In this document: piece after piece, positions 17,963 to 60,327 of the stretch
Layout: each line of letters opens with the position of its first letter
Position numbering within the stretch: the stretch's first letter is position 1
Source: Escherichia phage BP9
DNA length: 64,000 bases
Sequence record: PP488543.1
Strand: one strand, 5' to 3'
Translations under genes and position numbers: made by a program
Notes under the pieces: model-generated
The model's database searches: none
Seen by the model: only the letters and a program-made list of their open reading frames with translations
What the model was told of the DNA's origin: nothing

Positions 17963-18022
17963 TAAGATAATGACACGGGCCAAAAGGCCCACTAATCAGA
18001 ACCGCATAAAGAGGTAAACATC

Positions 18023-18286
18023 ATGAAACGTCTTGATCAGCTCAAACTAGTTCAGTACATGGCCTACAAAGTTCTTGAAGTCCAAAAAGGTAGCAAAAAA
18101 GAGGTTTGCGAGAAAGCATATAAGATCTTTACCCGTAAAAAAGATGATTGGATGTTACGCCAGACCAAAAAAGCCGATATCCTGGGGTACCTGGAAGAAG
18201 AGATCCGACTTGAAGAGCAAGAAGAGATCCGCCGCAGTGAAGCAGATTATCAGGCAGCTTGGGAAAACTGGATGAGTAACAAATAA
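18023..18286 (+). CDS. hypothetical protein (87 aa)
   Basis: RBS AAAGAGG upstream. Confidence 0.5.
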   Translation: MKRLDQLKLVQYMAYKVLEVQKGSKKEVCEKAYKIFTRKKDDWMLRQTKKADILGYLEEEIRLEEQEEIRRSEADYQAAWENWMSNK

Positions 18287-18431
18287 TACAACAAGTTGCA
18301 CGATCAGGGGGGCAATAAAGCCCCTTGATCACATAAAAATTATGCTATCCTTATTGACAAGGATCGGCAGTTTTGCTATATTCTTTTTTGAAGGGAAGTT
18401 GTAAGAAAATTAACTAAGAGGTAAAAACACC

Positions 18432-18851
18432 ATGAACATTAAATCTAATAATCCGGCATATAGCTTTGATAACGCTTTTTGTCACGGCCCGGCGGCGAAA
18501 GGATTCGAAATCGATGGTAAACTAATTATTGTCAATGTTGACGGGGAAGAGGTTGCAGTATATCCGGTGGCAGACGTAAAAAGCCGTTTACAATGCCGCA
18601 TGGATGTTACCGCCTATCAGCTTGATCCGGTCCGCATAGTTGCCCTGGTCCTGGAAGAAGAAATTAAAGCAATGCACCACAGCAACAAGTTTATTGGTGA
18701 CGCTCAAGATAATATGAAGGTATGCCGCCATAAAGTTAATGAAGTGCTTAAAGAATATGGCTTTAAAGATCTGATGATCAAACGTGAGGAAAAATTCCGC
18801 TACCGTAACGACCTGGCAAATCGGATTTTTGAAATATACGAATCATTATAA
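18432..18851 (+). CDS. hypothetical protein (139 aa)
   Basis: TTGACA-17-TATATT promoter-like; RBS TAAGAGG. Confidence 0.55.
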   Translation: MNIKSNNPAYSFDNAFCHGPAAKGFEIDGKLIIVNVDGEEVAVYPVADVKSRLQCRMDVTAYQLDPVRIVALVLEEEIKAMHHSNKFIGDAQDNMKVCRHKVNEVLKEYGFKDLMIKREEKFRYRNDLANRIFEIYESL

Positions 18852-18870
18852 TTTTTTAACTGAATTATCA

Positions 18871-18895
18871 AGGGGCTTAGGCCCCTTTCTTTTTG
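18871..18895 (+). terminator. intrinsic terminator ending the plus-strand early block
   Basis: AGGGGC-TTAG-GCCCCT followed by TTCTTTTT. Confidence 0.6.
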
Positions 18896-19547
18896 TCTGC
18901 TCTTCCCCCCTACCACAAACGGCCCAGCCTGGCAAGTGGAATAATTGACTAGCCATCAATCCCACACACTGTACAAACATACATATAAAATAACTATTGC
19001 ATAATTTTTCATTGTGTGGTAGCAGGGCCATTTTTACACGTTTTTCCTTCCAAAATTGCACGTAATGCAGCATTTGCACAAAATTTAACCTTATGCATAT
19101 CTTCAATAGCTTGTCAACAACTAAAAATCTTTATAAGTCATACACTTACATAACCACAAAAGCGTGTCCTACGTGAAAAATCGGGTGTAACTATAGCCGC
19201 CAGATCTCAGAATTTACGTACGCTCGCCATTCTATAGCCTGCTAAGCATTTATTCCAACCATAGAATAACGGAATAGTCAATACCTGCATAAAATAATTA
19301 TTCGTGTAAACTGCATAACATAAATCAGCTCAGGTGTCAACATTTTTCGTAAACAGTCTGAAATTGTCACGATAGGTTATCATAAACAGAGAAATCTTTA
19401 GTCGTCTAATGTTTACTGTACGTTACTATACTAACTGGAATCATTAGATGACTAATAGAAAGATAAGAAATAATTAACAATACAATTATTTTATCTGTAA
19501 CAATAAGGCAACTATGCAAACGAATGGCATGGCGCGACGGAGTCGCG

Positions 19548-19697
19548 ACATAATATAAAAGCAGTAACCATCACCCCCGTGATAGTTTGTCTGCAAACTA
19601 TTAATCAGATCATAGTTGCCTTATATTTAGTTAATCATGACATAACAAGCAAGGCAACTATAGATCTTCTAATAGTTGCCCTGCTTTTATATTATGT
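19548..19697. repeat. 16-bp inverted repeat pair flanking a ~120-bp core
   Basis: CATAATATAAAAGCAG (19548-19563) and its reverse complement CTGCTTTTATATTATG (19682-19697); flanked by direct repeats ATGCAAACGAATGG(C/T)ATGGC. Confidence 0.5.
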
Positions 19698-19791
19698 CAT
19701 AGATTATTAACTTGCTAATAGTTATCATGCAAACGAATGGTATGGCTTATCATTTCCATGTAAATAGTTAGCTATGTAAACTATTGGTCAT

Positions 19792-19861
19792 GTAAACAGT
19801 AAAGGGCGTGAACAGTAAGCAGGTGAATGGTAATAGCGTGAATAGTGACAGCGTAAACAGT
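19792..19861. repeat. iteron array: 5 x GT(A/G)AA(C/T)(A/G)GT at 15-16-bp period
   Basis: GTAAACAGT 19792, GTGAACAGT 19808, GTGAATGGT 19823, GTGAATAGT 19838, GTAAACAGT 19853. Confidence 0.55.
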
Positions 19862-19865
19862 CAGG

Positions 19866-19962
19866 CATGTCAATTATGTCAATCGTGTTTAATGTTCCCA
19901 GTATGTCAAAGGTGTCATGTTATGTCACTATTGTGTCATATTGTGTCAGTTATGTCAGACAA
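19866..19962. repeat. iteron array: ~10 x (A/T)TGTCA at ~10-bp period
   Basis: catgtcaattatgtcaatcgtg...gtatgtcaaaggtgtcatgttatgtcactattgtgtcatattgtgtcagttatgtcag. Confidence 0.55.
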
Positions 19963-21372
19963 GTTTTTCTCCTCTTTGTCAAGTGCTGCATAAAAATTTA
20001 CAAGCTTGTATGGTAGCATTTTTGCGGCCCTGTTTACATTCAGGAGTGTATGTATAACCCTTGTTGTGTGGGCGTTTAGACGTCTAGACGGTTGGAAGTC
20101 TACAGGTCAATATCTAATCTATTGGCTGCTAACTATATCCCACACAAATAGTAAGAAATATAATTGTTATATGCGTAAACAGTAACCTATGTTATCAATC
20201 CATGTATGTATCGCCAGTGGTGCGCATAATGGGTATTATGTTAAATTGCCCGTAATGATAACTATTCTCACAATGATAGGTATTCTCATTCACCCCGCAA
20301 GATAGGTTGCAAATGTTGTGTCACTGTGTGAACGGCCTCGCCTATTAATTTGCCTCACTGCCTTGATATTTGAGAATTGTTATAAGAATGAGAAGTATTC
20401 CCATTTCGTCCGCCTGGCAGCACTCCAGTCGCTACGGCTCATAACAGGGCAGAACCAGTCCTATTCAGATATTTCTGGCTGGCTCTTCAGGTCTGTGTGG
20501 GAAAAGCCAACCCCTCCGGCGGCGGGGAGGGGGTCAATTAAAAAATTTACGTGGTGTATGAAGCGCTCTTCAGGTAAGGCATGTATTATGGGATGAAATC
20601 CTCTTCAGACAATGATATTTGTTGGTGTGATATTTGCTGGAAAGCCAGATATGACGGGACTCCCGGCGGGGCAGGGGTAGTACAGACAGGGAAAATATGG
20701 GGGATGTAGTTGGGGAAATTGATCAGGTAGGTAGAGTATGGAATATGTTACAGGTATGTTAAATAGGGAGGCTGAATATCTGTAAGATTTGTGTGTAAAA
20801 TCAAAGACTTAAGTGGTGTTGTGGTATTTTCTATAAATAATTCAGGTTTAATAGGTAATATTTGTTTCAATCCACTTTGTGTGGTAAACAGATTCAGATG
20901 AAATTGGTTTACAAGTGTATACATAATATACAAATTAAAGATACAAGAAACCCCCCTCCCCCTTCGGCTACCATTCACCTTTTCCTCTGACTGGTACTTA
21001 AACACTTATTCAGACTCTTTAGGTTATCACCCATATATCATATGGCAGTGACTGGTGTCCTCCGGCCCCTCTTTCGTCACCCGTCCGCTTCGCCATGCTA
21101 ATGCCATAGCCAAATGTTCGGTTGTTCACCCTGTTCACTCAGGTGTATCTCCATACCCTTCAAACCGAAGAGAACAGAAAACCCGAATTACTCGGTAAAA
21201 GAAAAGAGAAGAACTTAATTTTATCAGGATAGGCAAGAATGTCAAGGCATGACTGCTCACTAAACAAGCAAACAGCCATGTGTGGGAGGTAAGTTATTGT
21301 GGTGGTGGGAAATTTAGTTGAAAGATGTGTTATAGGTGCTTCCAGCACTTTAGCTGGGCAGCTAATTGTGTG

Positions 21373-21588
21373 TCAGTCCAGCGGTTCATCCTCTACTTCA
21401 CTGAAATCAATGTTCATGGTCTCCTCCCAACCATCGATCTCAGCACAAGAGTGGAGTTCTTTAGGGTTTACTCCCAAAGCCTCAGCAACAGAGTCTATAT
21501 TTAACACCTCTGGCAGGTATGATTCATCGAATTCAAGGTAAATCAGGCCACGAGTGTTGTCAGCTCCACCAAATATTTCTATCTTCAT
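21373..21588 (-). CDS. hypothetical acidic protein (71 aa)
   Basis: ATG 21588 after AGAGGAG; last gene of minus-strand block. Confidence 0.4.
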   Translation of the reverse strand: MKIEIFGGADNTRGLIYLEFDESYLPEVLNIDSVAEALGVNPKELHSCAEIDGWEETMNIDFSEVEDEPLD

Positions 21589-21708
21589 AAAATCTCCTCT
21601 GGAAATGAGAATGTGAACTGGGTTTATACGTTCCAATGCACAGGAATTATGCACGTTTGCCTCTTCAGGCCATGCTTTAGCATGAGGAACCTGTGTGGGC
21701 TCGGTGCT

Positions 21709-22122
21709 TCATAGTCTACCACCCCTGAACTCTTCGTGCTCAGGCATAATAGAGAACCAGATATCTACGATGTCTTCCCACGTTAGGTCATCAGCCTCAG
21801 GATCTACCTGGAGCGAAGATGGGGAGTCTTTAGAATCGAAGTTTTCCTCTTTAACTGGCTCAGTCAAGGGACATATAGTCACTCCTTTGGATGTCTCTTC
21901 AGATGCATGTGTGTTTATCATGTTCCACCCGTGAGTATTCCGGCAACAGCCGCTATGGACGTAATGATCATCAGGATCACCACCAAAACCTCTGACAATG
22001 TTTTCATTGTGTATCCCATATTCTCCAAACGATGTGTGGATACTATCACTGGAGCGGCAATGTGTCAACAGAAACGCCGCGAGGGTTTGGTTAAAATCCG
22101 AGCGTATGGTGATTTGGGTCAA
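21709..22122 (-). CDS. hypothetical protein (start uncertain, TTG in track)
   Basis: Longest minus ORF in a region with overlapping ORFs on both strands; weak support. Confidence 0.25.
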   Translation of the reverse strand: MTQITIRSDFNQTLAAFLLTHCRSSDSIHTSFGEYGIHNENIVRGFGGDPDDHYVHSGCCRNTHGWNMINTHASEETSKGVTICPLTEPVKEENFDSKDSPSSLQVDPEADDLTWEDIVDIWFSIMPEHEEFRGGRL

Positions 22123-22281
22123 AACGGACGTGCGTTCTCGCTACGCTCGAAAGATAGATTTGTTTGTAGGAAGCTCTTAAACGCTCTGTAATGAGATTAT
22201 CTGTCCAAGGTATGCAATCGTGCACCAGATAAAGAAAAGGACGCCACAGAGCGTCCTAGGTGTCTTAAATTTGATATTTTG

Positions 22282-22581
22282 CTATACCCATGAGGGCTTA
22301 TCAAGGTTGGAGTAGCTGAAAGGTGTCAAAAGGTGATTGTCAAAATCTCTCAAACTATCCAGATCTTTTTCCTCGTCCTGACACCATCTGTGCCTACATT
22401 TATTGTTGTAGTGCATAGAATGCATAGCGTTCTGCAACTTAACAGGCACAAGTGATTCGGGAGTAGATAGTATTGTTGGGTATGCCAGAACCACTTCAAA
22501 CAGTGGAAACACATCGAAACTAAAGTCTACCTCTGCAGAGGTTGATGGCATATAGGAGTATTTAGCCGCCTTTGTAGACAT
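22282..22581 (-). CDS. hypothetical protein (99 aa)
   Basis: ATG 22581 after GAGGTGG; directly follows upstream stop. Confidence 0.45.
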   Translation of the reverse strand: MSTKAAKYSYMPSTSAEVDFSFDVFPLFEVVLAYPTILSTPESLVPVKLQNAMHSMHYNNKCRHRWCQDEEKDLDSLRDFDNHLLTPFSYSNLDKPSWV

Positions 22582-22589
22582 AATCCACC

Positions 22590-22916
22590 TCACACAGGTT
22601 TGATAATACCTTCACCGAATAGCTCTTCGTATCTAATCTTATCCGGATCCCACTCCTGGATAATTTCGAAGACAATATCCAACCCAGGAATAATCACTTC
22701 TCCAGTGTCAAGTTTGGCAAGAACAAAACCAGAAGGCTGAATGGTTTCCCAGTTGCGACGATTGGAATAGAAGACCTCGAAAATATCACCGACCTTGATC
22801 TGTTGATCAAGATGTTCAAGATTCTCTTTCATATAGACGCAGCGGATTTTTCGTGCAGGCCATAGACCGCCTGCATCACGTTCATTCAATTCTTTTACAG
22901 TAATCGGTACACCCAT
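22590..22916 (-). CDS. hypothetical protein (108 aa)
   Basis: RBS AAGGAG upstream of ATG. Confidence 0.5.
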   Translation of the reverse strand: MGVPITVKELNERDAGGLWPARKIRCVYMKENLEHLDQQIKVGDIFEVFYSNRRNWETIQPSGFVLAKLDTGEVIIPGLDIVFEIIQEWDPDKIRYEELFGEGIIKPV

Positions 22917-22969
22917 CTCAAATCTCCTTCATAGATAGTAAAAAGAGGGGCCCAAGCCCCTCTTTGCCA

Positions 22970-56937: not shown

Positions 56938-57288
56938 TCAGTAGATGTTTTGTTTAATCTCTATTCCAAACTTTTTAAACGAGTCAGCTGCAAGCATGAA
57001 TTTACGAGCCGCTGATGGATTAGAAGTATGCACGAAAATCTTCACGTTGTCAACTACAGGAGGCTTACCAAATACAAATTTTTCCTCCAACATAGATAGG
57101 CAATCGTACCCTTCGAATACCTCTCCAAGGTCGTTGTCCATATGCCACTCAGAAACGCGTCTGTAGAGCTTTTTATTATCGTTAATAAAATCCATAAACT
57201 CGGAGGAATTCTTTAGCCAAATAGCGTCTGGGAGCCCATAATTTGAAGGATCTCTCAGATCATCCAGCCACACAATCAACTTCTTCAT
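56938..57288 (-). CDS. hypothetical protein (116 aa)
   Basis: ATGA coupling to the RNA ligase-like gene; MKKLIVWLDDLRDP...VHTSNP. Confidence 0.45.
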   Translation of the reverse strand: MKKLIVWLDDLRDPSNYGLPDAIWLKNSSEFMDFINDNKKLYRRVSEWHMDNDLGEVFEGYDCLSMLEEKFVFGKPPVVDNVKIFVHTSNPSAARKFMLAADSFKKFGIEIKQNIY

Positions 57289-58220
57289 TGCATATAGTCC
57301 TCGTTGTGGAAATAGTGGTCAAGTATCTCACGGCGTTCCTGCTCCAGGAGGCAGTTCCACACATCTTCTGTGTAATTGCTACGAATGAAGTTTACCATGC
57401 CGTAAAACTCTTCATCAACACGTTTAAAGATATCATCATCCCAAATCTTCCAAGCTTTACCCCTCATTACGGCCTTCCGTGCCAGATAGTATGGAGACTT
57501 GATCTTCAGCTGCAGGTCGTAAGGGTAGTAAGGCTTACGGATCATATACCCTTCACCTCTTGTTTCTGCAGCTAATTCTTTTGCATAGCTGAACGGAATT
57601 TCACGCACAGTGTGAGGACGTTTTGCACCAAGGTATTTGGCAATCCCATCTAAAGCTGCTTCTGGTAGCATTATTCCAGAATCATTATATCTGCAACCTA
57701 TCAAATATGCGCCATGATCTTCTTGAACAATATGCGGATCTGAAGGGTGACAAATTTCAAACATGAATGTCATGTTTTCATTGCCCATAACCTTCTTGAT
57801 AAGATCTAAATTACCACATTGCTCCTGGATGGTTTCCTTTGCGAGGTTACAATATGGAGAATCAAGAGATCCGGTTGTTGAGAACAATAGTTCACCTTTA
57901 TGAGATGATACCACACCGAGGAATCCGTTCTTTTTCTCTACCGCAGTCACAAGTTTACTGTCCGGTAGGTTGGTGGAGTTTTCTCCCAAGTTAAACACTT
58001 TTGTGAAGGGCCATGCCACAACATTTCCTTCATTCCCGACAACAATGCCTCGGCACTCCAGTAAACGAGGGGACAAATGCCATAAATTGTTGTAAAATAC
58101 TTTTCTAGCATATTTATAGATCTTTAACCCGAGATCTGGGTAATATCTGCTGGTTACAAGACCTTTGTCAACTAGGTCGTCTGCATTAAAATACTTCATC
58201 ATACGTTCCTCATTTGTCAT
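57285..58220 (-). CDS. RNA ligase-like nucleotidyltransferase
   Basis: K-x-N-G (VEKKNGFLG), F-E (MTFMFEICH), EG motif (GEGYMIRKP), K-x-K (LKIKSP); distinct from the DNA ligase at 53531. Confidence 0.5.
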   Translation of the reverse strand: MTNEERMMKYFNADDLVDKGLVTSRYYPDLGLKIYKYARKVFYNNLWHLSPRLLECRGIVVGNEGNVVAWPFTKVFNLGENSTNLPDSKLVTAVEKKNGFLGVVSSHKGELLFSTTGSLDSPYCNLAKETIQEQCGNLDLIKKVMGNENMTFMFEICHPSDPHIVQEDHGAYLIGCRYNDSGIMLPEAALDGIAKYLGAKRPHTVREIPFSYAKELAAETRGEGYMIRKPYYPYDLQLKIKSPYYLARKAVMRGKAWKIWDDDIFKRVDEEFYGMVNFIRSNYTEDVWNCLLEQERREILDHYFHNEDYMQ

Positions 58221-58263
58221 TTTGTCAGTCTATCCTGCCACACAAATAACCTAGTGTCAACAC

Positions 58264-58292
58264 TTGAAATTAACAAAACAGTTAGGTATACT
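58264..58292 (+). promoter_or_regulatory. sigma70-like promoter (TTGAAA-17-TATACT) in divergent region
   Basis: Track ORF start at 58264 is the -35 TTG; real start at 58321. Confidence 0.45.
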
Positions 58293-58320
58293 ATCGTTGA
58301 AATTAAAACGGAGGGTCACT

Positions 58321-58728
58321 ATGTCTAAAATGCTATATATCGTGCGTGGTCTACCAGGGTCTGGCAAATCAACACTGGCAAATGCGCTATCTTTAGAGGG
58401 TCTGTATCCACATTTTGAGAACGACATGTTCTGGTACGACGATGATGGAAATTACAACTGGGATGCAAGTAAAGTCACACTTGCAGCAAAATGGTGCAAA
58501 GATAACGTAGAAGATATGATGCGTATGGGATACGACCGTATCGTGGTAAGTAATACGTTTACAAAAGAAAAATATGTGCAAAAATATATTGACATGGCAA
58601 TCAGTTATGGGTATAGTTATACCGTAATCGTGGTTGAAAACCGCCACGGTAATAAAAGCATTCATGCTTCAGACGAGGTTGTGGATCGTATGGAACGCCA
58701 ACTTAAAAACTGCATTAAACTTAAATGA
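58321..58728 (+). CDS. P-loop polynucleotide kinase-like protein
   Basis: ATG after GGAGGG; Walker A GLPGSGKST; 135 aa. Confidence 0.55.
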   Translation: MSKMLYIVRGLPGSGKSTLANALSLEGLYPHFENDMFWYDDDGNYNWDASKVTLAAKWCKDNVEDMMRMGYDRIVVSNTFTKEKYVQKYIDMAISYGYSYTVIVVENRHGNKSIHASDEVVDRMERQLKNCIKLK

Positions 58729-58735
58729 GGAATGT

Positions 58736-59290
58736 ATGAAATACTTTGTAACAAGCGACACACACTTTCTCCACCAGCGGGTCATGGAGTTTGATTCATG
58801 TCAAAAACACAGATCTCAGTATGATCACAATCTTGACAGTATGAATGCGGGAATCATCGCCGAGTGGAACTCTGTTGTGTCACCTGCAGACACTGTGTTC
58901 CACTTGGGGGATATTGCGTGCACTAATGATAAGAATATCAACAACTTACTTCCAGATATTCTAAATATGTTGAACGGACATATTATTCTTGTTCGTGGCA
59001 ACCATGACACAAGGACGACTGTCAGAATTATGAAAGAGTTCTATCATGAGGTTGTAGATTATTACGAGCTTCGCCACAACAAGAATTTGATCTGTATGAG
59101 CCATTACCAATTTGCAAAGTGGAACAGAAAGCATCACGGATCAGTCCAACTGTTCGGTCATGCTCACGGAACCACACAACAGTTGTTTGGCAGGCAGCTT
59201 GATGTCGGTTGGGATGTGTGGGGGAGACTCTTACCATTAGAAGAGGCATACCGTATTGCAATGAGTTTTGCTATTGACAGCGGGGAGTAA
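58736..59290 (+). CDS. calcineurin-type metallophosphoesterase
   Basis: SDTHF, HLGDIA, VRGNHD, GHAHG metallophosphatase motifs. Confidence 0.65.
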   Translation: MKYFVTSDTHFLHQRVMEFDSCQKHRSQYDHNLDSMNAGIIAEWNSVVSPADTVFHLGDIACTNDKNINNLLPDILNMLNGHIILVRGNHDTRTTVRIMKEFYHEVVDYYELRHNKNLICMSHYQFAKWNRKHHGSVQLFGHAHGTTQQLFGRQLDVGWDVWGRLLPLEEAYRIAMSFAIDSGE

Positions 59291-59337
59291 TCCCTGCTAT
59301 TTTAAAGAAAATTGCCACACAAGGAGAATCAGGAGAT

Positions 59338-59688
59338 ATGAAAGATGGGGATAAGCTGCTATATCTTAAAGTCCCCCTTGAAATACTGTCTATGTCAAAA
59401 GTTTTGAATGACACAACTGGAGAGGTTGTTGTTCTTGACTTGTATGACAAGATTGTATACTGCTACCTGCACAACTGGTATAAGCTTGGAGGAAATTCAC
59501 GCTTCACACCCAGCACAAGGAAAATTGCAGCAGATGTTGGGATAAAGAAAACAAAAGCAGCAGCGTGCGTTAAAACTTTAGAGTGTGCAGGGGTGGTTGA
59601 AACATCCACACAAGGGAGAGGTAAAAGATGCACATTTTCCAAAGTTTTGCCGCCAGAAGAAGTTATTCGAATGTCAACAACTGGTTAG
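59338..59688 (+). CDS. putative HTH DNA-binding protein (116 aa)
   Basis: RBS AAGGAG; helix-turn-helix-like TRKIAADVGIKKTKAAACVKTLE. Confidence 0.45.
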   Translation: MKDGDKLLYLKVPLEILSMSKVLNDTTGEVVVLDLYDKIVYCYLHNWYKLGGNSRFTPSTRKIAADVGIKKTKAAACVKTLECAGVVETSTQGRGKRCTFSKVLPPEEVIRMSTTG

Positions 59689-59763
59689 ACCAGTAAAAAC
59701 TTAAATATCTGTACTATAAGGATTTGTATGTTTTATGTTCACCATGGAACAGAAACTATTAAC

Positions 59764-59823
59764 TGTCCGTCACGCGGACACATCTGTCCGTAATACGGAC
59801 ACTAACTGTCCGTGATACGGACA
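59764..59823. promoter_or_regulatory. three tandem palindromic operator-like sites TGTCCGT-N3/5-ACGGACA
   Basis: 59764-59780, 59785-59801, 59807-59823; centres 21-22 bp apart. Confidence 0.5.
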
Positions 59824-59960
59824 CATAAAGAATATAACTAAAATAACTAAATAATAAAAAATAAAAGATCTAGTACTTATGGTACTAAGTACATATACTT
59901 AACTTATGTAGAATATACTAGATCCTAAGTACCATGTTTTAAATTTATTACTTTCTATAG

Positions 59961-60180
59961 GTAGTGTCGGCCCTTCATTGGCACTCGCCTACGAGGGGCG
60001 AGATGCCGGGCCTCTATAGTGCACACAATAACAGAAGTGCATACATGCAGGACTGTTAACATGTGTGGGAGCGAAGCGATAGCGCAGGCCAAAGGCCGAG
60101 CACTAATGTGGACCACCGACGAAAGCTTGCCAGCGCCGGAAGGAGTCGGTTGAGAGCCTCCCGCGCGAGTTCGGATAAAG
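59961..60180 (+). ncRNA. GC-rich stem-rich segment: candidate structured RNA (class unknown)
   Basis: About 60% GC island in AT-rich DNA; multiple nested complementary segments; no ORF; strand not determined. Confidence 0.3.
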
Positions 60181-60327
60181 TTTATGTGTGGAAACTGACA
60201 AGAAGGTCCCTAAATCGCTCCACAGCTATATAAACTATACCAAGTAAGGCAATCGCACCAGTTTGATAGAAAAGCTCGTTACAAAGCGATACAGTGAGTT
60301 TTTCTATAACTTGAAGAGGAGGCTGCT

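Follow-up and report, generated by a model that had tools for sequence, protein, structure and literature searches.

Repeat arrays beside the presumed chromosome ends in the non-coding gap of an rV5-like coliphage, most likely a DNA-packaging site

The closest described relatives of the locus examined here are the rV5-like coliphages. In the rV5 genome the interval 104013-106618 is without ORFs and was drawn by its authors (2013) as a 'non-coding' box, and the Murica paper reports the same gap. For LL12 the read-based program PhageTerm gave a non-permuted terminal redundancy of 459 bp, lying in the non-coding stretch that separates convergent transcripts. Gotham also has 459-bp repeats, with a start sequence identical in all virions, and its record carries a repeat_region annotation at both ends. 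Terminal redundancy of EdH4 and HdK5 is 458 bp, while KPP-1 from another genus of the same subfamily possesses a 514-bp repeat in the equivalent gap, classified as T7-type by PhageTerm. The publications on rV5, Murica, LL12, Gotham and EdH4/HdK5 do not describe the repeat arrays presented below or their relation to the cuts.

We analyzed 64,000 nucleotides of Escherichia phage BP9 (PP488543.1), referred to as the window, which belong to an rV5-like coliphage (Vequintavirus). The 2.5-kb gap in this window matches 121 vequintavirus records with 90-95% identity and is the already published non-coding region of rV5-like coliphages. The original prediction, made from the letters of the window, saw in it an iteron-rich candidate replication origin and mentioned packaging recognition sites as the other option. 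The gap and its repeats are present in the sequence far above chance and needed small corrections, and the proposed interpretation is partly supported. Our results indicate that the gap is most likely a DNA-packaging site. Taken as a whole, the explanation we find probable is that the gap is a concatemer junction cut at the edges of a terminal repeat, that the arrays flanking it are terminase sites and that replication starts elsewhere. The features are collected in Table 1.

Table 1. Features of the gap and of the initiator locus (positions in the window; cut positions placed by homology)
Feature	Position	Strand	Remark
Intrinsic terminator	18870..18888	+	ends the + strand unit downstream of the gp164-like gene (18432-18851)
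Conserved non-coding left arm	18889..19513	.	90-98% column identity, 12 genomes
Direct-repeat/inverted-repeat module	19514..19746	.	ATGCAAACGAATGGYATGGC at 19514 and 19727 as brackets
GTRAAYRGT array, six copies	19760..19861	+	part of wider GKRAACAG box family
TGTCA array, eight copies	19868..19957	+	final copy ends at terminal-repeat edge
Odd palindrome TGTC-A-GACA	19953..19961	.	spans cut 19957|19958; read directly from sequence
Direct terminal repeat, 457 bp	19958..20414	-	single copy in window, concatemer-junction form
TAGACGTCTA palindrome	20077..20086	.	inside repeat, within TAGAC/GTCTA cluster 20077-20105
AATGAKA..ATTCTCA / TGAGAAT boxes	20254..20403	+	inside repeat, close to presumed left virion end
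Odd palindrome GCC-T-GGC	20412..20418	.	spans cut 20414|20415, presumed left virion DNA end
GGCAGMAC(TCC) repeat and indel hot spot	20415..20451	+	directly outside left cut
Three CTCTTCAG(G) motifs	20483..20608	+	copies at 20483, 20566, 20601
GC-rich hairpin then T-rich tail	20511..20532	-	terminator-like, ~100 bp before repeat edge
Hyper-conserved block	20938..21245	-	sigma-70-type promoter, 5' hairpin, candidate structured RNA of ~275 nt
RepA_N-like initiator gene, 116-aa protein	59338-59688		window's only initiator-like protein

That the gap holds no supported ORF, as originally predicted, agrees with the rV5 annotation and with our comparison, in which none of the 14 ORFs of at least 40 aa was intact across 11 relatives. 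Substitutions showed no third-codon-position bias. A hidden gene was rejected since all 14 ORFs break in relatives, and the 'novel gene' of Murica and the numerous small ORF calls of MiataMamis were rejected as not conserved. The convergent arrangement of the flanks is borne out by ORF orientation, GC skew and the annotations of rV5 and Murica, the latter with a terminator at the place matching the one in Table 1. No Rfam match was found in the gap, neither by a permissive scan of 18000-22500 nor by a scan of the whole window at the gathering threshold. Proteins encoded on the two sides match only PHROGs with unknown function and no Pfam family, and no gene flanking the gap resembles an initiator. 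Conservation of the gap in 12 genomes is 90-100% throughout, interrupted only by two indel-rich spots, and both of these lie directly outside the two edges of the terminal repeat. The left arm, which contains an AT-rich patch, includes a block (19093-19200) that can still be recognized in the divergent relative L007.

The repeats of LL12 and Gotham align from end to end (1-459) to window positions 20414-19958 with 95% identity. This is their single match in the 64-kb window, and the copy is flanked by homologues of both the right-end and the left-end unique DNA of Gotham. Column identity within the repeat is 90-99% in 12 genomes, and both of its junctions are invariant in these genomes while array copy number varies. 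Two further records point to the same bases: ECP2309 ends at the base equivalent to cut 19957|19958, and bov22_2 starts at the one equivalent to cut 20414|20415. According to the LL12/Gotham mapping, cut 19957|19958 corresponds to the right end of virion DNA in the Gotham orientation. The edge sequences are TGTCA|GACAAG on one side and GCC|TGGCAGCA on the other; in the rV5 counterpart of GCC-T-GGC the central base is A and the arms are kept. From this homology we infer that the phage is cut at the bases equivalent to those of LL12 and Gotham. Phapecoctavirus was also considered as a source of termini, since its gp164-like flanking gene is 91% identical, and was rejected because ECO340P2 shows only an assembly overlap of ~55 nt.

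Inside the repeat, the TAGACGTCTA palindrome expected near 20077 is indeed present. The last ~50 bp of the repeat read GATATTTGAGAAT...ATGAGAAG...TTCGYCYGCC and form the block with the highest conservation between Vequintavirus, clade 2 and KPP-1 (Mydovirus). Repeat ends of KPP-1 are homologous to those of the window, and TGAGAAT is enriched in the gap of KPP-1 as well.

The two arrays on one side of the repeat were largely described correctly. GTRAAYRGT copies start at 19760, 19792, 19808, 19823, 19838 and 19853. The five predicted 9-mers are therefore real, although the first of their spacings is 16 and only the following three are 15, and an additional copy is present at 19760. Between 19349 and 20183 lie 8 of the 11 matches in the window, and the Poisson probability of six copies in 110 bp is ~1e-17. 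Relatives have 1-6 copies. The wider GKRAACAG box family has 8 of its 13 members in the gap and is also found in clade-2 relatives and in KPP-1. The predicted array of about ten phased (A/T)TGTCA repeats proved to consist of eight exact TGTCA copies, preceded by A in five cases and by G in three, with spacings of 9, 27, 9, 10, 11, 10 and 9. A spacing of 9-11 bp brings the copies to the same helical face. Elsewhere in the window TGTCA reaches at most four copies per 100 bp; the Poisson probability of the eight-copy cluster is ~7e-12, and none of 20,000 local shuffles reached eight copies. Relatives have 1-5 copies, of which the final one, abutting GACAAGTTTT, is invariant.

At the opposite edge of the repeat, units of GGCAGCAC start at 20415. 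Here column identity drops to 0.69 with 26% gaps, compared with values above 0.9 in the adjoining columns to the left and right. Relatives carry one or two copies of a 33-nt unit, and a deletion variant of the GGCAGCAC unit is peculiar to this phage. Arrays abut the cut sites in every relative examined, as short directional repeats, helically phased in the case of TGTCA, immediately beside the presumed cleavage site. In clade-2 relatives the position of the TGTCA array is occupied by an array of GTATGCCTA and the overall layout is kept. The arrays as a rule for the whole subfamily were rejected because KPP-1 shares the repeat ends and an inverted-repeat module and has no array comparable to TGTCA at the corresponding edge.

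Several other elements accompany these arrays. The ATGCAAACGAATGGYATGGC pair encloses a perfect 18-nt inverted repeat (19547-19564 / 19681-19698) and four GGCAACTAT boxes, a layout found also in L007 and KPP-1 with different arm sequences. FV3 lacks the module and has one direct-repeat copy left, so the module is dispensable and the gap is not needed in full. The three CTCTTCAG copies were found as predicted, and in L007 three copies likewise follow the presumed repeat; the predicted GC hairpin is also present and scores as a minus-strand intrinsic terminator. In 114 of 118 records the hyper-conserved block shows 95-99% identity. Its promoter consists of TTGACA (21245-21240), a 16-nt spacer and TG-TAAAAT (21223-21218) with a score of 11/12, and the hairpin at 21195-21183 would form the 5' part of the candidate RNA. 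Promoter and hairpin are retained in clade 2 with compensatory changes. The candidate RNA has no match in Rfam. Of its 47 consensus pairs, 10 show covariation of both partners and 6 a mismatch of any kind, in a set of 17 distinct sequences that represent only two deep lineages. A metagenome scan with a conserved 18-mer gave 120 loci with only 4 true relatives, all of them within the two known clades, and the power of the covariation analysis consequently stayed low.

The packaging alternative of the original prediction is supported by the LL12 and Gotham termini at 19958-20414 and by the arrays that abut them, which are candidate recognition sites. The gap would then be a concatemer junction, at which the right end of the packaged linear chromosome adjoins the left one. 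Virion DNA would start at 20414, run down the minus strand (GGCGGACG...) and end at 19958 (...AAAACTTGTC). Late in infection genomes would be joined head to tail through one shared copy of the repeat, and terminase would cut at both repeat edges, in the centres of the odd palindromes GCC|TGGC and TGTCA|GACA. Duplication of the repeat would leave a copy at both virion ends, as in T7-type packaging, which is the presumed mode. Outside the cuts would lie the TGTCA and then the GTRAAYRGT array on one side and the GGCAGCAC units on the other, and just inside the left end the conserved TGAGAAT block. The position of the indel-rich spots just outside both edges means that the 'iterons' flank the concatemer cut sites. 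Judging from sequence, they are putative terminase recognition or positioning elements in packaging of the T7-type with a short repeat, and together with the TGAGAAT block they are putative sites probably used by the small subunit. The terminase gene itself is probably outside the window, as estimated from the gene order of rV5.

An origin of the iteron type, where an early phage protein would bind GTRAAYRGT and/or TGTCA, melt AT-rich DNA and load helicase-primase, is in our opinion very unlikely. Clustering, direction and phasing of the repeats are in accordance with it, as is the AT-rich patch (19400-19520, GC 0.26) 270 bp from the arrays, which themselves have a GC of 0.37. In clade-2 relatives the homologous repeat contains perfect DnaA boxes in tandem, 2-3 in number, at the spot to which the TAGACGTCTA palindrome aligns, and ICP1, which has a related polymerase, apparently changes over to a late origin close to an end of its genome. 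Host DnaA boxes are frequent at origins of this type without being required. However, no DnaA box with up to one mismatch occurs between 14811 and 22035, the flanking proteins match only families of unknown function, and repeat units that are 5-9 nt long and spaced by 10 or 15 bp differ from typical iterons of 17-22 bp; moreover, conservation within the gap is lowest in the arrays. Cumulative GC skew has its maximum at the gap, between convergent units, which is terminus-like, although the rV5 authors state that skew there follows transcription. As evidence on origins GC skew is weak, since in this phage it follows the direction of transcription. The predicted origin was accordingly not upheld, with DnaA box, initiator gene and matching iterons all missing from the gap. 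The sole initiator-like protein is encoded elsewhere (Table 1), and its gene is followed by three semi-palindromic 22-bp iterons and a stretch with 20% GC. The iteron TGTCCGTNANNCGGACA occurs in the window only at 59764-59823, with no copy in the gap, and AT content in the window is highest at 59.8 kb. This canonical arrangement of initiator, iterons and AT-rich DNA at 59.3-59.95 kb, 40 kb from the gap, is a much better origin candidate, and replication most likely starts at this initiator-iteron locus near 59.8 kb. By analogy with ICP1, there may be an additional, end-proximal origin.

The arrays could also be a neutral by-product, i.e. simple repeats prone to slippage and recombination which accumulate beside the ends without sequence-specific function, so that only the junction bases matter. 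They are the indel-rich spots of the gap, their copy number is variable (1-8 for TGTCA, 1-6 for GTRAAYRGT), and FV3 has a single exact TGTCA copy; most TGTCA copies thus cannot be essential. Nevertheless, all 12 genomes agree in the motif, its strand and its phasing of 9-11 bp, even FV3 keeps a degenerate GTGTA/GTGTC series at 9-bp spacing, the diverged clade has a different array equally placed, and GKRAACAG boxes recur over the gap and between genera, which makes this explanation unlikely. A regulatory region, with the repeats as operators or as parts of a non-coding transcript controlling late events, is also very unlikely. The strong conserved sigma-70-like promoter with the candidate structured RNA, the minus-strand terminator at 20532-20511 and an excess of promoter-like matches (19 observed, 10.7 expected) would fit such a role. 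On the other hand, the same terminator would halt the transcript from 21245 before it reached the repeat and the arrays, which lie ~1.3 kb from the promoter past the terminal repeat, and the transcript is predicted from sequence and has no Rfam match. Regulation would also leave the exact stop of the arrays at the cut sites unexplained. Concatemer processing in T7 requires RNA polymerase at the junction. A composite end-processing centre, in which the host-type promoter at 21245 would drive the ~275-nt RNA toward the terminal repeat, a putative DNA-binding protein would recognize GKRAACAG and TGTCA boxes on both sides of the repeat, and transcription by the host RNA polymerase or the RNA itself would be coupled to concatemer cutting, is decidedly unlikely; if it were true, the conserved block would represent a new family of phage RNA at the very least.

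Knowledge of the physical ends would enable annotators to orient and open vequintavirus genomes, many of which have been opened arbitrarily or carry spurious small ORFs across the gap. Vequintaviruses are therapeutically used phages, and for phage engineers the locus would show which DNA to keep intact for packaging. Variable arrays which stop exactly at both cuts are a cheap and concrete target for finding the terminase recognition protein, while the search for the origin is redirected to the initiator and iterons at 59.3-59.95 kb.

In comparison with V5-like coliphages (rV5, Murica, LL12, Gotham, EdH4/HdK5), the gap is homologous DNA with 90-95% identity in the same position between convergent units, and it shares both junction sequences, the motif families and a repeat length within 2 bp. 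It differs in its TGTCA array, the longest among those compared (eight copies against 1-5), and in that ends are defined by reads in LL12 and Gotham and placed by homology in this phage. Origins of the RepA_N type (PLE RepA with repeat 3, pSK41), the sort of element envisaged in the original prediction, have their counterpart in the window in the module at 59338-59940, while the arrays of the gap differ in unit length and sequence and have no adjoining initiator gene.

Arrays recognized by terminase are known as the R sites of lambda cosB, the pacL/pacR boxes of SPP1 and the pac hexamers of P1. Like these, the arrays of the gap are short, phased, directional repeats on one helix face immediately by the presumed cleavage site, but lambda, SPP1 and P1 use cohesive ends or headful packaging, whereas the ends here would be an exact terminal repeat and binding is presumed. 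The T7/T3 junction has short exact terminal repeats with adjoining pac signals and flanking short-repeat arrays. The gap resembles it in the short, exact and presumably non-permuted repeat, present once at the junction, with arrays of short direct repeats on its outer sides. There is no sequence similarity to T7/T3, and this phage is a 136-kb myovirus without a phage RNA polymerase or its promoters, in which the sole promoter facing the junction is of the host type.

The gap between the convergent transcription units, read in the original prediction as a candidate origin, is a genuine, non-random feature, but one already described in V5-like phages as their non-coding, terminal-repeat region; what is new is that its variable repeat arrays stop exactly at both palindromic cut sites, and that the likelier origin is an initiator-iteron module outside the gap. 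In a phage database search its 2.55 kb (18850-21400) matched 121 phage records at 90-95% identity, nearly all of them Escherichia phages of the genus Vequintavirus (rV5, Murica, FFH2, FV3, LL12 and others), and the window is therefore a segment of an rV5-like myovirus genome. The same gap is mentioned in the Murica genome note, with 2,554 bp in Murica versus 2,604 bp in rV5. Its lack of genes and the convergent flanking units were both confirmed: none of 14 ORFs of at least 40 aa is intact across 11 relatives, and no codon-position bias was found in their substitutions. Unannotated 'Campylobacter phage' records (18-19, MG0656xx) match this coliphage region at 90-98% identity; either their labels look wrong or the samples look mixed.

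It is very probable that the gap is a chromosome-end junction. The LL12 terminal repeat aligns from first to last base with 20414..19958, minus strand, at 95% identity, and that of Gotham, annotated at both ends of its record, aligns fully over the same bases, strand and identity; no second copy is present within the 64-kb window. Unique DNA of the right end of Gotham corresponds to 20415-22948 and that of the left end to 19957-18864, thus the window presents the chromosome ends in joined form: first the right unique end, then the repeat, then the left unique end. Records bov22_2 and ECP2309 begin or end at exactly the repeat-edge bases. Terminal repeats of 459 bp, with an identical start sequence in all virions, are described for Gotham and of 458 bp for EdH4 and HdK5.

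At the edge at 19957 the last TGTCA copy ends and the repeat starts with GACAAGTTTT, the two together forming the odd palindrome TGTC-A-GACA. The opposite edge lies between ...CGTCCGCC and TGGCAGCA... and has the odd palindrome GCC-T-GGC, in rV5 with A as the central base and unchanged arms. The predicted 9-mers, CTCTTCAG copies, palindrome and GC hairpin are all present (see table), and so are the phased TGTCA repeats, though as eight copies rather than about ten. TGTCA clustering is far above chance (Poisson probability ~7e-12; 0 of 20,000 local shuffles reach eight copies), and the second-densest 100 bp of the whole window holds four. Conservation across the gap in the 12-genome alignment is 90-100%, save at two indel-rich spots, both directly outside the repeat edges. 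Among the window and its relatives TGTCA varies from 1 to 8 copies and GTRAAYRGT from 1 to 6, the TGTCA copy at the junction is invariant among relatives, and FV3 retains a degenerate GTGTA/GTGTC series with 9-bp spacing. GKRAACAG boxes are characteristic of the gap: it makes up 3.9% of the window's length but holds eight of the 13 copies. They are found in other lineages too.

Coordinates of features in the window and in related loci of the divergent clade
Feature	Sequence	Coordinates	Strand	Details
Direct-repeat/inverted-repeat module	window	19514-19746		20-nt direct repeat bracketing 18-nt perfect inverted repeat
GTRAAYRGT 9-mers	window	19792, 19808, 19823, 19838, 19853		spacing 16, 15, 15, 15; further copy at 19760
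TGTCA array	window	19868-19957	plus	spacing 9, 27, 9, 10, 11, 10, 9
Indel-rich spot 1	window	19772-19957		TGTCA and GTRAAYRGT arrays; 12-genome alignment
Palindrome TAGACGTCTA	window	20077-20086		
Indel-rich spot 2	window	20415-20451		GGCAGCACTCC unit, one or two copies; 12-genome alignment
CTCTTCAG, three copies	window	20483, 20566, 20601		
GC hairpin	window	20511-20532	minus	scores as terminator
Predicted promoter, 5' hairpin and ~275-nt consensus fold	window	20938-21245	minus	non-coding
DnaA boxes TTATCCACA	L007	7845-7884		
DnaA boxes TTATCCACA	L018	11959-11998		
DnaA boxes TTATCCACA	L020	1004-1043		
DnaA boxes TTATCCACA	L027	6430-6457		

The mapped ends, edges and arrays are consistent with T7-type packaging with short terminal repeats. 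Concatemers would carry one repeat per junction, the two palindromic edges would be the terminase cut points, and the repeat would be duplicated during maturation. The phased arrays abutting the cuts and the conserved stretch just within the left end could then be terminase recognition or positioning sites; for the arrays, a role as putative terminase sites is quite possible, but we propose it tentatively. The 9-11 bp phasing puts the TGTCA copies on one helix face, as expected if DNA wraps around an oligomeric small subunit.

An origin at the gap is disfavored by the lack of any DnaA box within it, even allowing one mismatch, by flanking genes that match only families of unknown function, by its location at the cumulative GC-skew maximum and by the arrays being its least conserved DNA in the 12-genome alignment. 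According to the rV5 paper, skew changes solely at points where the direction of transcription switches. A likelier origin, and the best candidate in the window, is the canonical initiator-iteron locus at 59338-59940, annotated in the compared records merely as a hypothetical protein and a repeat_region. Its 116-aa RepA_N-like protein (59338-59688) matches PHROG 12838 'replication initiation protein' (E 5e-80) and, slightly below the Pfam cut-offs, DUF6945 and HTH_36; its best solved relative is 4RO3 (E 3e-6), the N-terminal domain of PLE RepA, a RepA_N-family initiator which binds semi-palindromic iterons. Three 22-bp semi-palindromic iterons TAACTGTCCGTnAnnCGGACAC (59760-59824), absent from the rest of the window, gap included, lie 72 bases downstream of the gene and are followed by a ~120-bp stretch with GC of about 0.2, the window's most AT-rich DNA, near the GC-skew minimum. 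An extra, late, end-proximal origin, besides the 59.3-59.9 kb locus, is conceivable, as such an origin seems to be used by ICP1. A GC-rich, hairpin-rich, non-coding stretch (59950-60200) separates the AT-rich element from the next gene (60328).

Conservation is ~100% at 20972-21250 in the 12-genome alignment, and of 118 records, 114 have the wider block 20930-21372 at 95-99% identity. By score, the minus strand of the block bears a strong promoter of sigma-70 type. This promoter is retained in a divergent clade whose members (L007, L018, L020 and L027) come solely from IMG/VR and metagenome contigs, and the hairpin that follows it there shows compensatory changes (CCGAGTAATTCGG vs CCAGAATACGCTTCTGG). 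In the consensus fold the CU-rich 5' end pairs with the G-rich 3' end. No Rfam family matches the block, which may encode a novel phage RNA; this RNA stays a candidate since it is represented by two deep lineages only. All 11 aligned relatives have one base more than the window within 21055-21198; compared with the related loci L006 and L017, the difference is in a G homopolymer (GGG vs GGGG) at ~21160 (...TTTGAAGGGTATGG..., minus strand). Either a sequencing error or true variation could account for it.

The module of direct and inverted repeats recurs in L007 and KPP-1 with other arm sequences. FV3 has ATGCAAACGAATGGCATGGC only once and is missing the ~213 bp that separate the two copies in the window (19534-19746), inverted repeat included; therefore the module is dispensable. 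Small hairpin-bearing insertions (CCTGGCATAGCCAG...) come and go at this place among relatives, and are present in the divergent clade too. The gap is adjoined by a 139-aa protein (18432-18851) without a Pfam match, though a 'Rel homology domain' is noted in the record of Murica. FV3, slur12 and Gotham do not carry this protein. In phAPEC8-like phages (Phapecoctavirus, of another subfamily) it is ~91% identical and there too lies next to a gene-poor stretch, of ~1.5 kb and containing short tandem repeats (related locus L008, 6420-7966). TGTGTGG occurs 30 times in the whole window versus 9 expected (0 of 100 shuffles reach 30), clustering at two strand-switch regions, 18962-22039 and 57268-60191; it partly resembles TggTAaAAtA, the late-promoter motif proposed in the rV5 paper.

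The divergent clade keeps the layout of the region: the repeat module, then GGAAACAGT or GTAAACTGT boxes, a short array and a conserved block ...CTCTTTTTGTCAA, the edge-proximal array being GTATGCCTA in 2-4 copies. Two to three perfect tandem DnaA boxes lie inside its terminal-repeat-homologous stretch; the terminal-repeat stretches of the window and rV5 have no such boxes. Repeat ends are recognisably homologous among Vequintavirus, the divergent clade and KPP-1, a phage of another genus of the subfamily with a 514-bp repeat and T7-type packaging, and conservation across the three is highest in the final ~50 bp at the left end, where TGAGAAT boxes lie. Repeats adjoin the left edge in KPP-1, but without a TGTCA-like array.
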